56,790 nt of DNA. Source: Promethearchaeota archaeon. GTDB lineage: Archaea > Asgardarchaeota > Lokiarchaeia > Sigyniarchaeales > SOKP01. Below the pieces are notes generated by a model. The model was not told where the DNA came from. It saw nothing but the letters and a program-made list of their open reading frames with translations, and searched no databases. Positions 5,165 through 19,421 of this stretch are shown here, piece by piece. Made by a program: the position numbers and the translations under genes. The stretch is from the NCBI GenBank assembly GCA_019057865.1, contig JAHLWP010000027.1, positions 1 through 56,790 of the forward strand, in the 5' to 3' direction. The stretch's first letter is position 1. Every line of letters starts with the position of its first letter.

Positions 5165-6022
5165 TCAACATTTATCACAATAAGTTTTATTTTTATACTT
5201 CTTATATCTCAATTCTATTGGTAATTTTACATTTGATTTTGATTTTAAATATGTTATAAATTCATCAGCCGAATTATCCTCTACTTTCAAATATCTGCCG
5301 GTTAGTCCGTTTACGCTATTATTAGACCTTCTTCCAAAAATTGCATATCTGTCAATATTACTTTTACTCGATTGCCAATTTTTAAATTTTTTAAGAATAT
5401 AATCATCAATATCTATTCCTTTCCCTTCAGCATAGAATAGATTTTTACACAGAAAACAGCAATCTCTGTTAAAAACATGAAATCTTTTTAGCGGATTTTT
5501 TAGTAAAAGTTGATTATTTTGAACCAAAATTTCAGGATGGTTTTTATTACTAATAATATCCATAACCCATTCATGATTTATTTTGTGATAGGTATTGCGA
5601 GAAGTATAACCATCAAATAAATTCCTTTTATTATTAGAATAATGAGGGTAAACATGCAAAGGAGAATTTTTGCTCTTAAGTAAAGGAAAAAAAATTTCAT
5701 TTTTCTTCATCTCCTTATAAATTTCCTCAAAAGTAAAAAGTTCTTCAATTTTACCCATCCAAATGATTTTTCGAATTTTTTTGGAATTCGAACCATTCAG
5801 ACCGATTATATAGATCTTTTGTTTGGGTTTAATTCTGCCTAATTTATTTGGTTTAATATAAGTCTTATATAATTCTTCTCTTAAACGTTTTTTACAAGGT
5901 CCGAAAAAAATATTGCTAGAATTAACTTTATAAGGTACTCCACTGTCATCAACTCGGTCTGCATCTTTCGATAATTTAACAATATAAAAATAAAGAATTG
6001 AATCGTTTTGGGATTTCGTCAT
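5165..6022 (-). CDS. Divergent Nmad2-like (nucleotide modification associated domain 2) protein
   Basis: Collinear similarity to the Nmad2 at 16954-17613: YFYIV/YSYVV, GPCKKRLR/ATCKPRIR, IYIIG/DWVVG, KIIWMGKIEELFTFEE/KLIYAMKVEEKISFDQ, and a C-terminal CxKC in both. Confidence 0.55.
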   Translation of the reverse strand: MTKSQNDSILYFYIVKLSKDADRVDDSGVPYKVNSSNIFFGPCKKRLREELYKTYIKPNKLGRIKPKQKIYIIGLNGSNSKKIRKIIWMGKIEELFTFEEIYKEMKKNEIFFPLLKSKNSPLHVYPHYSNNKRNLFDGYTSRNTYHKINHEWVMDIISNKNHPEILVQNNQLLLKNPLKRFHVFNRDCCFLCKNLFYAEGKGIDIDDYILKKFKNWQSSKSNIDRYAIFGRRSNNSVNGLTGRYLKVEDNSADEFITYLKSKSNVKLPIELRYKKYKNKTYCDKC

Positions 6023-6317
6023 AACATTATAGTAAAATTAGGATTATTTAAAGATAGTCCTTTTGAGAAGTAAACTGTTCTGTGTTCAAGAAAATTATAT
6101 CTATAAAATAAAAAATGGAGAATTGAATTATGTTCTCTTCCTTCATTTTAACCCTATTTTATTTTATTTATAATAATTACATAAAAATTTTTGTATTTAA
6201 TATTATTTTATTAATTACAAAAAAGTCTATAATTATATGCCATCTCAATTTTTTGCTATTATAGTTGAGAAAAATCCTACTATTTATAATTAGTATTTAT
6301 ATGAGGGAAGCTGGATA

Positions 6318-6611
6318 TCAAAAATTTTCTGTAATTAACCTTATTCGTATTAAATCAATCTGGGATAAATTTTTTCCAAAAAAATCAGTTATATCAAAGT
6401 ATATTTCTAAATTTTCGCCATTTTTAAGTTTGAGTTCTAATTTGTCATACATTTTACCATCAATATTCAATAGGGATTGAAGTATTAATCTATATTCTCC
6501 AAACCTTTTTCTTACCTCTATGTATTCTTGTTCAACTCCTTCTTCATTAGTACAATCGGAAATAATTATCGCATTAGTTAAGGAGGAACCATCTCCACCA
6601 GATACTTTCAT
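6318..6611 (-). CDS. Conserved small hypothetical protein
   Basis: GGDGSS.TNAIII...YDKL...IYFDITDFFGK resembles a widespread uncharacterised family. Confidence 0.7.
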   Translation of the reverse strand: MKVSGGDGSSLTNAIIISDCTNEEGVEQEYIEVRKRFGEYRLILQSLLNIDGKMYDKLELKLKNGENLEIYFDITDFFGKNLSQIDLIRIRLITENF

Positions 6612-6887
6612 AAATCATATACTCTTGAATGTTTTTTTCATTTTTTTTGTATTTTTTTTTGCTTATCCTCAACCTAAATATTAATATTGCCTAAAAAATG
6701 AATAAAAAAACATAAATATAAATATTACAGAAATGTCAATGGTTAGCGCACACTTTCTTTTAATAAAGGAAAAAAGATAATTATTTAGAATTTAGAATTA
6801 ATCCTCATTTTAGGTACAATTACTAAGATAAATTAAAAAATAGTTTAAATCTACAAGAAAGAACGATAGTTACGATTTTTGATTAAA

Positions 6888-7130
6888 TTATTCACTTTTC
6901 TTGTTATTCACAAAAATTTCATATAAATTTCTGCAAACTTTCTTAGCATTTTTTCTTGATATTTCGTTTACAGGCCAAGGGGTCTTTTCAGTTCGCTTAT
7001 AACTTGTCCCATCTTTTTTATTAACAGTAAAAATTTTAATTGATTTTCCCATTATGAATTGTTTTGCTTTCTCAGTATATTTTAACTCGCATTGTTTTAG
7101 AAATTCCTTTTTGATTATTCTTTCCATCAT
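6888..7130 (-). CDS. Hypothetical protein or gene fragment
   Basis: 80-aa ATG ORF directly downstream of the PIWI fragment; no motif recognised. Confidence 0.45.
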   Translation of the reverse strand: MMERIIKKEFLKQCELKYTEKAKQFIMGKSIKIFTVNKKDGTSYKRTEKTPWPVNEISRKNAKKVCRNLYEIFVNNKKSE

Positions 7131-7194
7131 TAAATGAATTCTACTTTTAAGTATTTAAATTTCTAGGAGTATGTAATTAGTAAAAAAAAGATCT

Positions 7195-8022
7195 TCACAT
7201 AAAAAATCGATATTGTTTAGGTAAATTTTGAATTTTTCTTGCTCTTGCTTCTTCTAGGATTATTCCGACTCTGTGTGATACTTTCAATGTTATATGATAT
7301 TTACTACAAAATTCAGCATTATTCCAATCTAATTTGGAGAAAGCCATAATTTCAATCAATAATTGCTCATAAGTAGAATCGCACTCATATAATTTGACAT
7401 AGAGAGGTGTAGGCACTTGGGAGCCAGGATAAGTGTTTAAAGCAGGAATAAAGCCAGACGTATAAAGAAAATGTTCATTGTTCGAAATGGATATTACCGT
7501 TCCTCTTACAACAGGATACTGATCATCAGTGTAGAATCTAACATCTTTTCTTGATATACAAAGAAAATTCTTATCTGGAATAGTTTTTGCTCCTTCATTA
7601 AATCCCTTTAATTTTTCTTCATTAAATTCAGTAGATTTATGTATCACTATTCTCTGAGGTTCTTGTTCCATATGATTCTTATATTCCTTTACGATTTCCA
7701 TCATCAATGCTGAAGCATGATCTTCATTGAGATGTGGATTTCGATCTTGATTAAAATCCCATGGAAATGGTTGTCCGCGTAAAACATAACTTTGCCCCGT
7801 ATGTAAAAATATCTGCGCCATACTTACACCCATTTGTCCACCTTGTGCGATATTATCTGGATAAAATCCTACTCCAGCATAGCAAGTTCCGGGATATAAA
7901 TCAATTACTTTCCAAGGGATTCCCGTAGCTTTATAATAGAGCCCGACTGAAAAGATCATTTCGCTTAAGATATGAAATTTAATTGTGTTTAACGATTTTA
8001 TAATATATTTTTTAAATTCCAA
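7195..8022 (-). pseudogene. Prokaryotic Argonaute, PIWI domain only (short/long-B, catalytically inactive type), 5'-truncated
   Basis: FSVGLYYKATGIPW, TCYAGVGFY, PQRIVIHKST, YPVVRGT, LYTSG...YPG...PTPL and SKLDWN are pAgo motifs. The DEDX aspartates are replaced. The first ~23 aa are unrelated and most of MID is missing. Confidence 0.85.
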
Positions 8023-16113: not shown

Positions 16114-16168
16114 TGATAAAAGAAAAGAGAGATTTTTTCATTAATAATTAGAAATCCTTTAGAAATGA

Positions 16169-16954
16169 TTAATCATCATAAGAAAGAACAAATTCACAGA
16201 ATTTTTTTGCATAGTTTCTTTCCAGTTTTTTTAAGCCCATATGAACTATGGTTGTTTTATGGGGCCAACCGATTTGCTTAAAAATATCTGGTAAAATGTT
16301 CCACTTTTTATTATCCGTAAACTGAATTGCTTTTTTAAATAATCTACTCTCATTAGGGTTGCCAGCTGCGATAACTGGTCTTTCATCTTTTCGAATTATG
16401 TGCATATTATTACCTATTCTTTTATCAATTTTTGAATAGTTGAGATTTTGCCCACTAAAGCGAAAGTCGAAAATTTTTTCAATTGTAATGTATCCTACTA
16501 GATATTTACCTTTTGCTCTTCTCCGAAAAGCAGGAATTAGACTCATATAGAACACAAGCATATCTCCTCTGTCTAGATTTGATAAGGCTTTGGCTTTTGC
16601 TTCTGATCCTTCACCATACGTGAAGGTATTAAATTCAGGGTCGTAATGTGGAATATATGAGGTTAAAGGATAACCTTTATACTTTCCATCTCCCAAATAG
16701 TCTCCCATATATATTCTATTAGGAAATTCTGGCCAAGGGTCAATTTTAATCTCGTTATATGTCTTGAGATCATAGGAGCTCTTATATACATTTTTATGAA
16801 ATAATCTTAGCTCTGCTACTTTTTCATTATGTATTGGATTCTCAATTGAGAATTCTGGAATAGGAATAAACAAGAATCTACCATCATCTAATATTGGAGC
16901 ATATTGTCCTCCAGTACTAGATTCAATTCCTATTGGTACAATAAGTATTTTCAT
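16169..16954 (-). CDS. Nmad3 (nucleotide modification associated domain 3) protein
   Basis: GIESSTGGQYAPILDDGRFLFIPIPE, HYDPEF.TFTYGE, LDRGDMLVFY, YLVGY; 1-nt overlap with Nmad2. Confidence 0.8.
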   Translation of the reverse strand: MKILIVPIGIESSTGGQYAPILDDGRFLFIPIPEFSIENPIHNEKVAELRLFHKNVYKSSYDLKTYNEIKIDPWPEFPNRIYMGDYLGDGKYKGYPLTSYIPHYDPEFNTFTYGEGSEAKAKALSNLDRGDMLVFYMSLIPAFRRRAKGKYLVGYITIEKIFDFRFSGQNLNYSKIDKRIGNNMHIIRKDERPVIAAGNPNESRLFKKAIQFTDNKKWNILPDIFKQIGWPHKTTIVHMGLKKLERNYAKKFCEFVLSYDD

Positions 16955-17613
16955 TATTCTTCATCATCCTTAGGTGTTCCATCATATTCTATACATTTAT
17001 GGCATATGTCAAGATTTACGGAAAGTAAATACGGTGAACCTTGACATCCATTAAGACCATATTTAGTTTTCAACCAATTTAAGAAATTTGTAATAAGATT
17101 TTCTGGAAAAGTACACTTATGCCCTGGACCTTTTTTAATAATATCTTGAATTTTTTTAGGAATTTCCACAGCCTTTTTACCAAAGTAACAGAAAAGTTTT
17201 GAAATTAGCACAAATTCACCACTAAGGTCGTGTTGCTTTAATTCTTCATTTTCACTACCATCTCTATTGCTATGATTTGAAGGCCTCTGGTAATATACAC
17301 CCTTTGGATCTTTAAAGTAAATATTATCACCAACTTTCTTAATTTTATCACTACTAAACCAAGTCGGAATCTTATAACTGAATCTTTTATCTCTATCGTA
17401 TTGATCAAAAGATATCTTCTCTTCGACCTTCATTGCATAGATTAATTTTATGTTACCCACATATTCAACTGAACCTGTGCCAACTACCCAATCTCCTATT
17501 TTGATCTTTTTTCTAATCCGGGGTTTACAGGTGGCTAATGTGCAATACTCTCCAAATGGATTAGGTGCAAATCCAGAATCATACCTAACTACATATGAAT
17601 AGATCCTTGTCAT
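16954..17613 (-). CDS. Nmad2 (nucleotide modification associated domain 2) protein
   Basis: IYSYVVRYDSGFAPNPFGEYCTLATCKPRIRK, GDWVVGTG, LIYAMKV, GDNIY, VLIS..F.YFG..A. Confidence 0.88.
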   Translation of the reverse strand: MTRIYSYVVRYDSGFAPNPFGEYCTLATCKPRIRKKIKIGDWVVGTGSVEYVGNIKLIYAMKVEEKISFDQYDRDKRFSYKIPTWFSSDKIKKVGDNIYFKDPKGVYYQRPSNHSNRDGSENEELKQHDLSGEFVLISKLFCYFGKKAVEIPKKIQDIIKKGPGHKCTFPENLITNFLNWLKTKYGLNGCQGSPYLLSVNLDICHKCIEYDGTPKDDEE

Positions 17614-17647
17614 ATACTCAGATAGTTGTATTATTTTTTTTTTAAGA

Positions 17648-18274
17648 TCATATTCGACCTTTTGCCCAAAAGATAAAGTCTAAGACTTTAACAGGATTAT
17701 CCCTTAGTTTTGAGATATCTCTTTTTTCTTTCAATTCTTCAATAATCATCTCTAAGGAATTATTTTTTATGATATATTCATAGCTCTGTTTAATTTCATT
17801 GTAAACAGAAAAAAACGATTCTATTTTCTCTTCAGGTGTGGTACCATACGGTTCTTTTAGCCCTAACGCTTTTCGGACTTGAGAATCATAGATAGGATAC
17901 TTATTATTTACTGTATGAAGCAACTTCGAACCATAGGAATATTCCATCTTAAATTCTCCACTTTTATCTTTCCTTAATTTTAACTTATGTAATATTTCTC
18001 TAACCTTTTCCTCAAATTTATCACTATCCGTTAGAGTAAAATCAGCAAGCACTGTAAAAAAGGGCTCTGATACCTGTGCCGAGATACGTATCATATAATA
18101 TTTTCTAAATACAAATTTAAATAAAGAATCATCTACAATCTTTTCTCCCAAGATCATGTATTGTTCGTGAATGAAGCAATAGACATCAATATATTCTTGG
18201 GGGATATTCTCAATGATAGTATCTTTTTCTTTATCTACTGATTTAATTATTTTTAGAATTCTTAATCGTTCCAT
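17648..18274 (-). CDS. All-helical protein with a motif resembling the HhH DNA-glycosylase superfamily
   Basis: FRKYY...SYGSKLLHTVNNKYPIYDSQVRKALG...VKVLDFIFW; 34 nt upstream of Nmad2. Confidence 0.55.
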   Translation of the reverse strand: MERLRILKIIKSVDKEKDTIIENIPQEYIDVYCFIHEQYMILGEKIVDDSLFKFVFRKYYMIRISAQVSEPFFTVLADFTLTDSDKFEEKVREILHKLKLRKDKSGEFKMEYSYGSKLLHTVNNKYPIYDSQVRKALGLKEPYGTTPEEKIESFFSVYNEIKQSYEYIIKNNSLEMIIEELKEKRDISKLRDNPVKVLDFIFWAKGRI

Positions 18275-18342
18275 CTTATTAGGAGGTTCCTTCTTTTTTA
18301 TTTAATAATAGTTATGTTTGACATTGAATGAATTACCTTTTT

Positions 18343-18669
18343 TTAGTTATAATTTTTATTTATAGTGTATTCTAATTTGGTGGATTTTTTAACTAAAATT
18401 TTTAAAATCTTTGCGTGGAAATCCATATTATTTACAAACCACTTGGGAATATTCGTCTTATTCATCCTTAAATAAGGATTTGATATATTGTGAATTTTAG
18501 GGTATTCAATACCAAATAGGATTAAAACAGCTTTTAATGATTGCTCTACAGCCATTTCATAAGAAAATACAACGTCATTCCATCGTTCATCTTCAAATGC
18601 GCGAATCGCATTCTGCTGCCATTGTTTTCCTCTTTTTAATCCTTCCTGAGCGACTTCTATATTATTCAT
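18343..18669 (-). CDS. HEPN domain protein of an MNT-HEPN pair, probably 3'-truncated
   Basis: FSYEMAVEQSLKAVL...YPKIHNI. The ORF ends in a low-complexity tail without the expected C-terminal Arg motif and helix. Confidence 0.75.
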   Translation of the reverse strand: MNNIEVAQEGLKRGKQWQQNAIRAFEDERWNDVVFSYEMAVEQSLKAVLILFGIEYPKIHNISNPYLRMNKTNIPKWFVNNMDFHAKILKILVKKSTKLEYTINKNYN

Positions 18670-19421
18670 AATTCGATTACTTCACCAAATTGAACATCAT
18701 TTCGTTTCCAATAAAATTTTTTATCGGAAATAAAAATACGCTGTATTTTTTTAGATATTATTCTTTGGTTAATTCTTTTTATAAAATTAAATCCAATGTT
18801 AGATCTATCGAATAATATAATTCCATCCATAGCTATATCATAAAATAAAGTCCTAAAATTGTTTAATTCTTTTAATAGTATTGGATATTCTTGTAAAGAG
18901 CAATAAATTGGTCTATTATTTCCATCTTTCAACACAAGTCTCTTTTCAAGATCTACTAAAATGTTTGTTAAAGTTTTGTTTAAGTCTGATTTATTTGAAA
19001 TTTCATTTGAAAATATTAATAATAAATCAATATCGCTCTCATAAGTCCATTTTCCCCGGGTTACAGAACCATACAATATAACTGATATAATTTTGTTATT
19101 AAATTTTTCTTTTAAGAGAGAGATGTAAGTATATAAGTAATTTTTGAATATATATGGAACTCGATCATAATTCTCAAAGAAATTTTCTTCTTGGATAATT
19201 GCTTTCGCTTTTACAAGTATTCTCAATATTTTTTTTCCTCTTTCGGTTATCTGATATAATCCACTTTTTTGGATAAGTAACTTTTTTTCTAATAAGAACT
19301 TTAACCTTTCTGAGCGTGTTTTTTTGTTTTTAATAGATATATCAAGCGCCGTGAAGCTGGATTCCTCGTATACTTCTAATTGTTCTAATATTTTCAAACA
19401 ATAATCATCAATCAATTTCAT
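18666..19421 (-). CDS. Winged-HTH + minimal nucleotidyltransferase (MNT)
   Basis: N-terminal wHTH (YQITERGKKI) and ILYGSVTRG.....SDIDLL; ATGA overlap with the HEPN gene. Confidence 0.88.
   Translation of the reverse strand: MKLIDDYCLKILEQLEVYEESSFTALDISIKNKKTRSERLKFLLEKKLLIQKSGLYQITERGKKILRILVKAKAIIQEENFFENYDRVPYIFKNYLYTYISLLKEKFNNKIISVILYGSVTRGKWTYESDIDLLLIFSNEISNKSDLNKTLTNILVDLEKRLVLKDGNNRPIYCSLQEYPILLKELNNFRTLFYDIAMDGIILFDRSNIGFNFIKRINQRIISKKIQRIFISDKKFYWKRNDVQFGEVIEL

Follow-up and report, generated by a model that had tools for sequence, protein, structure and literature searches.

In the papers considered here, all known cases of immunity by DNA glycosylases against chemically modified phage DNA come from bacteria, namely those of Brig1 (2024; PMC11078745) and of the Dag glycosylases and Brig3 (preprints, 2025-26). 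Dag1, Dag2 and 22 further structural clusters belong to the helix-hairpin-helix (HhH) superfamily and act as single genes in Vibrio integrons; the substrates of Dag1 are 7-deazaguanines, and its activity requires K118, D184 and W188 and in part D132 (bioRxiv 10.1101/2025.10.29.685425). Defence glycosylases occur in other folds as well, as seen in Brig1 (PMC11078745) and Brig3 (bioRxiv 10.64898/2026.02.25.707755), the former being a member of the uracil-DNA glycosylase (UDG) family and not of the HhH superfamily according to the Dag preprint (10.1101/2025.10.29.685425). The range of Brig3 is widened by its operon partner BapA, a glucose-removing hydrolase (10.64898/2026.02.25.707755). Another bacterial system, DS-4 ('NTTI', DefensePredictor, PMC13092281), combines a thymidylate-synthase-like (TS-like) protein, a kinase, a 5-hydroxymethyldeoxyuridine (5-hmdU) DNA kinase, a TIR protein and an Nmad2 protein, and its anti-phage activity was validated in Escherichia coli. 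Here we describe a cassette of three genes, ORF-A (open reading frame A), Nmad2 and Nmad3, from the Asgard archaeon Promethearchaeota archaeon, found in a stretch of 56,790 nucleotides (contig JAHLWP010000027.1, assembly GCA_019057865.1; hereafter the window). The reading of this mobile cassette which we favour, at about even odds, is a composite defence system in an Asgard defence island, directed against modified viral DNA.

The cassette consists of ORF-A (17648-18274, 208 aa), Nmad2 (PF18753; 16954-17613, 219 aa) and Nmad3 (PF18754; 16169-16954, 261 aa), all on the minus strand and, according to the ORF listing of the window, all free of internal stops. ORF-A and Nmad2 are separated by a 34-nt gap (17614-17647), and the start of Nmad3 shares one nucleotide (16954) with the stop of Nmad2. 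A first-pass annotation made from the letters of the sequence had reported three co-oriented, unbroken genes with this gap and this overlap, and the ORF listing confirms all of it. The names it gave to the second and third gene also hold, both proteins scoring above the Pfam gathering threshold: Nmad2 with 234.2 bits against 26.1 (E 1.3e-69, profile positions 1-196 of 200) and Nmad3 with 74 bits against 27 (E 1.9e-20, positions 1-212 of 247). On the minus strand the 34-nt spacer is A-rich in the sense direction and no oligo-T terminator was found in it on reading, which would be compatible with co-transcription of ORF-A and Nmad2. Upstream of ORF-A (18275-18325, minus strand) an A/T-rich, TATA-like stretch, TTATTAAATAAAAAA, lies about 25-40 nt before the ATG and is a putative archaeal promoter; this region falls inside the block which the window has in common with another contig, L158.

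ORF-A falls in no glycosylase family defined by sequence. Scans of Pfam, NCBIfam and PADLOC gave no family above threshold, DUF6308 (PF19827) scoring 14.6 bits and thus under its cut-off of 27.3, and a search of PDB sequences with the ORF-A profile returned noise only. A word-indexed search found only six relatives; the exhaustive profile search found a far larger family of about 1,676 representative clusters, 625 of them at E<=1e-10 and most about 200 aa long. All sampled members carry the name 'hypothetical', and the longer, fused ones contain no recognisable additional domains. DUF6308 is weakly matched by 21 of the 105 aligned members (best E 7.5e-8), although ORF-A itself stays below the family cut-off, and it is also a structural neighbour of ORF-A in the ESM Atlas (TM-score 0.64). 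Judged by these profile matches, the family of ORF-A is large, has no name and is related to DUF6308. At a mean identity of 27% the family keeps S113, K117, P127, D130, D199, F200 and W203 near-invariant. The signature S-K-P-D...D-F-W is retained in 119 of 156 sequences; the distance from K to the first D is 13 and that from the second D to W is 4 with almost no exceptions, and the two D are 61-73 residues apart. The motifs SKLLH, PIYDS and LDFIFW, which the first-pass annotation had quoted for this protein, are present and sit on these positions.

The fold of ORF-A is that of HhH-GPD DNA glycosylases. An AlphaFold model computed from 7 sequences was poor (predicted local distance difference test, pLDDT, 64); the model computed from 105 sequences reached a pLDDT of 96.8 and a predicted TM-score (pTM) of 0.92, is all-alpha and matches the two-lobed all-alpha fold of EndoIII, MutY, Ogg2 and AlkA. 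In a VIA-align scan of 48,161 representatives, which is independent of Foldseek, HhH-GPD DNA glycosylases occupied all top 14 ranks, with an Ogg2-type protein as best match and Mig, AGOG, NTHL1, AlkA and Mag1 at lower ranks. The shape search of the ESM Atlas also returned unnamed bacterial clusters with TM-scores of 0.83-0.85. Foldseek gave no match of the model to the PDB at E<=0.001. The fold and profile comparisons that the first-pass annotation had suggested as a check on its 'HhH-like' label for the 208-aa protein were divided, being positive with VIA-align and negative with Foldseek against the PDB and with hhalign against glycosylase profiles; the label itself is right for the fold and for the active-site architecture, as borne out by the model, the VIA-align ranks and the residue columns.

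Those columns come from a global MAFFT merge with Ogg2, in which D130, D199, W203 and G206 of ORF-A fall on the invariant Ogg2 residues D151, D198, W202 and G207. The near-invariant D130 follows P127 and lies just ahead of helix 131-136, in the position of the catalytic Asp as defined by alignment and not by three-dimensional superposition; the sole segment aligned by hhalign likewise pairs D130 with the EndoIII-type VDTH. The column of the canonical Schiff-base Lys holds S113, and the near-invariant K117 stands four residues, or one helical turn, later and opposite Ogg2 H137, so that the spacing from K to D is 13 in ORF-A and 18 in Ogg2. With the Ogg2 8-oxoguanine DNA glycosylase/lyase (Tm1821, MjOgg; NF002305) ORF-A thus has in common the size, a full-length structural match, the catalytic Asp column and a C-terminal LD-x2-W-x2-G motif, but it differs in the Ser at the canonical Lys position, in the lack of significant sequence similarity and in the lack of a Gly-hydrophobic-Gly hairpin. 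Canonical HhH-GPD genes and an Ogg2 locus are located on other contigs of the same genome, apart from ORF-A, which is carried on mobile, defence-associated DNA. This Ogg2 locus (NF002305; genome G000, contig C54:41328-41944, outside the window) seems to be split, with profile positions 68-210 in a 143-aa frame and positions 3-90 in an overlapping stretch that contains TAG and TAA stops, which suggests that the housekeeping Ogg2 may be frameshifted or broken.

In the spacing of Lys and Asp ORF-A is closer to the Dag glycosylases. Like these it has an HhH-superfamily fold hidden from sequence searches, is about 200 aa long and lies on mobile DNA, and its distant relatives, as is usual for Dag genes, stand alone. 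Compared by published residue positions, with no Dag1 sequence aligned, K118, D132, D184 and W188 of Dag1 would correspond to K117, D130, D199 and W203 of ORF-A; the distance from K to D is 14 in Dag1 and 13 in ORF-A, nearer than the 18 of Ogg2, and that from D to W is 4 in both. The two Asp residues, in contrast, stand 52 positions apart in Dag1 and 61-73 apart in the ORF-A family, of which no retrieved member has the exact numbering of Dag1. The Dag genes are, moreover, bacterial single-gene integron cassettes, whereas ORF-A is archaeal and heads an operon of three genes. On this analogy the best-supported reading is that ORF-A would work like a Dag.

The three genes move together. By blastn, window positions 16141-18301 recur in the European Nucleotide Archive (ENA) contig L156 at 91.8% nucleotide identity and positions 16158-18325 recur in L158 at 94.8%. 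The two contigs have just this block of about 2.17 kb in common, and all flanks are unrelated, those of the window included. The conserved block (16141-18325) comprises the three genes and extends beyond them by about 10-30 bp on the downstream side and about 27-50 bp on the upstream side. In the window, L156 and L158 none of the three genes is broken, and at ratios of nonsynonymous to synonymous polymorphism (pN/pS) of 0.25-0.64 they are under purifying selection; genes that stay intact in two independent contigs at such ratios are no mere chance ORFs. In a fourth contig the order recurs with proteins of 208, 219 and 263 aa, so that gene order and spacing are kept in four contigs, and a further contig, L159, contains ORF-A and the beginning of Nmad2. 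Several studies of sediments and cold seeps have yielded metagenomes with near-identical copies of the cassette. Because the block is kept with intact genes, purifying pN/pS and unrelated flanks, it moves as one unit. The two ends of the cassette were searched for direct and inverted repeats, with weak AT-rich chance matches as the only result. Identity varies along the block: for ORF-A it is 98% between the window and L158, without a single synonymous change, for Nmad2 it is 89%, and for Nmad3 it is higher to L156 (92%) than to L158 (86%); such mosaic identities would imply recombination among cassette variants.

Nmad2, present once in the genome, belongs to a family with 3,387 homologues at E<=1e-5, mostly bacterial, and homologues of Nmad3 with 52-87% identity are found in Promethearchaeia and in sediment metagenomes. 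For a survey of neighbours, 80 Nmad2 loci were taken from species-representative genomes, and the same-strand neighbours were clustered and then named. A ThsB-like TIR gene lies immediately upstream of Nmad2 in 61 loci, a MazG-C protein is encoded downstream in 39, and a UDG-superfamily protein occurs in 29; other loci contain a 5-hmdU DNA kinase, a thymidylate-synthase-like gene or a deoxynucleoside monophosphate (dNMP) kinase. This common bacterial architecture matches DS-4 (PMC13092281), which resembles the archaeal cassette in the Nmad2 protein and in its being joined to a protein of N-glycosidase fold, there the TIR. DS-4 differs in its TS-like protein, kinase, 5-hmdU DNA kinase and TIR and in having no Nmad3; none of its four partner genes is in the cassette, and neither these nor MazG-C or UDG genes were found in or beside it. 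Our main argument for a connection within the cassette is that Nmad2 is recurrently joined to N-glycosidase-type proteins, namely TIR and UDG in bacteria and the HhH-fold protein here, which by analogy suggests a shared functional theme. The first-pass annotation knew of no biochemical characterisation of Nmad2 and Nmad3; relevant experimental work now exists, on the Dag glycosylases, on Brig1, on Brig3 with BapA and on DS-4.

Profile searches of the PDB with the Nmad2 and with the Nmad3 alignment returned only noise, hhalign detected no relationship between the two families, feature searches of the ESM Atlas led to unnamed clusters only, and relaxed Pfam tallies of the members of both families contained no PUA-clan families; EVE and ASCH genes were too scarce in the order for comparison profiles. 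An Nmad3 relative of 453 aa from an ENA metagenome (P0279, 62% identity) is fused to PF04326 (AlbA_2, Schlafen-type DNA-binding), a fusion which hints that Nmad3 may act on nucleic acid. The pairing of Nmad2 with Nmad3 is a minority architecture in the 80-locus sample (L005, L006, L007, L009 and the archaeal contigs L085 and L088). In L085-L087 the two genes are convergent with a 4-nt overlap (Nmad2 6001-6657, plus strand; Nmad3 6654-7388, minus strand), a different pairing geometry in which Nmad2 is 65% and the adjacent Nmad3 about 25% identical to the proteins of the window. In L088 (8412-11645) an Nmad2-Nmad3 pair (65%) stands without ORF-A, 1.6 kb from a MwoI-like restriction enzyme and an N6/N4 methyltransferase, surroundings that fit a defence-island setting for the pair. 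Some bacteria have two Nmad2 genes a few kb apart, as in L015 (897-1934 and 5896-6648), and those of L031 and L049 lie 8 kb apart on one Pseudomonadales chromosome. In the window an ORF of 285 aa (5165-6022, minus strand), beside a Schlafen-type helicase, was considered as a divergent second Nmad2, which is not supported, as it had no Pfam match and an hhalign probability of 2.6% (E 0.017) over a single motif of 34 residues.

In the mechanism we propose, ORF-A would be a highly diverged DNA glycosylase of the HhH-GPD superfamily and of the Dag kind, which acts on invading viral DNA by flipping out a non-canonical (hypermodified) base and excising it. K117, within the second HhH helix, and D130, just behind that helix, would as a pair serve excision, and the C-terminal Asp-x3-Trp (D199, W203) would contact the base or stack on it. 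The resulting abasic sites or nicks would lead to destruction of the viral genome. Nmad2-Nmad3, a translationally coupled and widespread mobile module, would recognise or process modified nucleotides and may have been recruited behind the glycosylase in this lineage, where it would either extend or gate the substrate range, as BapA does for Brig3, or form a second layer of defence. Brig3 with BapA, where the operon of the defence glycosylase also encodes a helper directed at the modified base, offers a model for such assistance, but the likeness is functional only.

Several results weigh against this proposal. As to an obligate partnership, no ORF-A relative lies within 6 kb of Nmad2 at any of the 80 loci, bacterial or archaeal. 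Relatives of ORF-A with 23-32% identity, collected with a 7-row alignment from about 35 metagenomic loci and 2 viral ones, are accompanied by no Nmad2 or Nmad3 and by no recurrent neighbour; a Pfam tally of 103 neighbours of these distant relatives was heterogeneous and without clear defence enrichment. Neither Nmad gene was found beside ORF-A homologues at 50-60% or at 30% identity, Nmad2-Nmad3 pairs at 63-65% identity occur without ORF-A, and the identities within the block are mosaic. As to the glycosylase assignment, ORF-A has no sequence match to PF00730 (HhH-GPD) in the Pfam and NCBIfam scans, the Ogg2 model NF002305 does not match it in its own genome, and hhalign of the ORF-A family gave a probability of 0.2% with the EndoIII/MutY profile and also with the Ogg2 profile, both built from related genomes. 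The Gly-hydrophobic-Gly hairpin was not found in ORF-A, where helices 87-97 and 112-122 are linked by the 14-residue loop LKLRKDKSGEFKME in place of an LPGVG-type hairpin, with G106 alone conserved among close relatives. A complex prediction of ORF-A with Nmad2 and Nmad3 gave 'no answer' (score 0.00) and weighs neither way.

The distribution across genomes bears on the same question. Of 251 genomes of the phylum, 24 have Nmad3, 8 have Nmad2 and 3 have a member of the ORF-A family, and all three genes occur together in the genome of the window only. The 17 other genomes of the genus that were sampled contain no intact copy of ORF-A, Nmad2 or Nmad3; an 86-aa piece of ORF-A is present in G201 and a 37-aa piece of Nmad3 in G231. 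From the absence of ORF-A at the 80 Nmad2 loci and of Nmad genes at the distant ORF-A loci, together with the shared mobile block, it follows that the association of ORF-A with Nmad2-Nmad3 is recent and lineage-restricted and is now propagated as one cassette. Co-occurrence, which the first-pass annotation had named as a check, is therefore seen among close copies, where the triad is kept, and does not extend to distant homologues or to the 80 Nmad2 loci. The earlier interpretation, an HhH-type enzyme that together with the Nmad proteins writes or excises a modified base, is in part supported, namely for the fold, and not for a broad linkage.

The alternative that best survives these results regards ORF-A, as a stand-alone Dag-like protein, and Nmad2-Nmad3 as two independent modules that a chance recombination within a defence island has brought together and that work without each other. 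It is favoured by the fact that each part alone is far commoner than both together, by the single-gene action of Dag glycosylases (10.1101/2025.10.29.685425) and by the mosaic block, in which ORF-A is closest to L158 and Nmad3 to L156. The sharp borders of the block, identical in three contexts, argue against it, as do the spacer of only 34 nt without a terminator-like T-run, the order and spacing kept in four contigs and the habitual company of bacterial Nmad2 with the N-glycosidase-type TIR and UDG proteins; we consider it possible, if on the unlikely side. The stricter version of our proposal, a three-component archaeal antiviral system in which Nmad2-Nmad3 would recognise or trim hypermodified viral bases and pass them to the Dag-like HhH glycosylase, we regard as doubtful.

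ORF-A might also be no DNA glycosylase at all. It could be a nucleotide or nucleoside hydrolase, comparable to the HhH-like queuosine-salvage protein DUF2419, or a non-catalytic helical protein that resembles HhH-GPD enzymes only through a common arrangement of helices, in which case the role of the cassette would lie in the metabolism of the nucleotide pool or in something unrelated. The 14 consecutive top ranks for one superfamily, with end-to-end coverage by a protein of the same size, and the conserved Asp and C-terminal D-x3-W on invariant Ogg2 columns, which parallel the residues mutated in Dag1, make this improbable. A base-modification 'writer' for DNA or RNA, in which the HhH protein swaps a base or takes it out and Nmad2/Nmad3 put in another for protection of the nucleic acid of the host or of a virus itself, would fit the Pfam names ('nucleotide modification associated') and the presence, near Nmad2, of homologues of enzymes for thymidine hypermodification (5-hmdU DNA kinase, TS-like, dNMP kinase), but it is very improbable given that the cassette has no recognisable domain for precursor synthesis or transfer or for the use of S-adenosylmethionine, ATP or pyridoxal phosphate, is absent from 250 of the 251 related genomes and has a bacterial counterpart with hypermodification enzymes that is anti-phage in E. 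coli (DS-4, PMC13092281), and that only 2 of the about 37 ORF-A relatives found are on viral contigs.

Each component of the proposed defence cassette is of a known or recently described kind. New are the recognition of the 208-aa partner as a Dag-like HhH-fold protein of a large unnamed family, its union with the Nmad pair in a mobile cassette, and the Asgard setting. If the proposal is true, defence of the Dag type would extend to archaea, and the existence of Asgard viruses with modified DNA would be implied. If its stricter version is true, Asgard archaea would have their first immune system based on a glycosylase, and Nmad2 and Nmad3, unexplained parts of bacterial systems such as DS-4, their first biochemical role. 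Both are widespread, mobile and repeatedly flagged as linked to defence, and the cassette places the pair right behind a protein of recognisable catalytic architecture, in a compact and directly testable unit of 2.2 kb that gives a handle on their role. The ORF-A family, with about 1,700 unnamed representative clusters, may hold a large stock of defence glycosylases that have so far gone without annotation.

Directly upstream of the cassette lies a HEPN ORF (18343-18669, minus strand, 108 aa), followed by its partner, a wHTH-nucleotidyltransferase (MNT) ORF (18666-19421, minus strand, assigned with Pfam), which looks intact. The HEPN ORF covers positions 3-69 of 117 of the Pfam profile and its tail derives from a conserved junction segment of about 56 bp (18338-18392, minus strand), so that HEPN has probably lost its own 3' end, possibly when the cassette arrived. 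For this ORF the result fits the decay of neighbouring genes that the first-pass annotation had described, a claim which was checked in part. The junction segment recurs at L156:5030-5085 (blastn, 84%) and L159:1033-1082 (99%, up to 18392). By BLASTP three otherwise unrelated upstream ORFs, the HEPN ORF of the window and ORFs of 122 aa in L156 and 110 aa in L159, owe their last 16 codons (..KSTKLEYTINKNYN) and their stop to this segment, which has the look of a cassette junction or recombination site where the 3' ends of upstream genes are captured. Farther out are DprA with a PRTase-like gene and a Schlafen-group-3 helicase, and on the other side of the cassette the housekeeping genes MGMT, NMO and a racemase.

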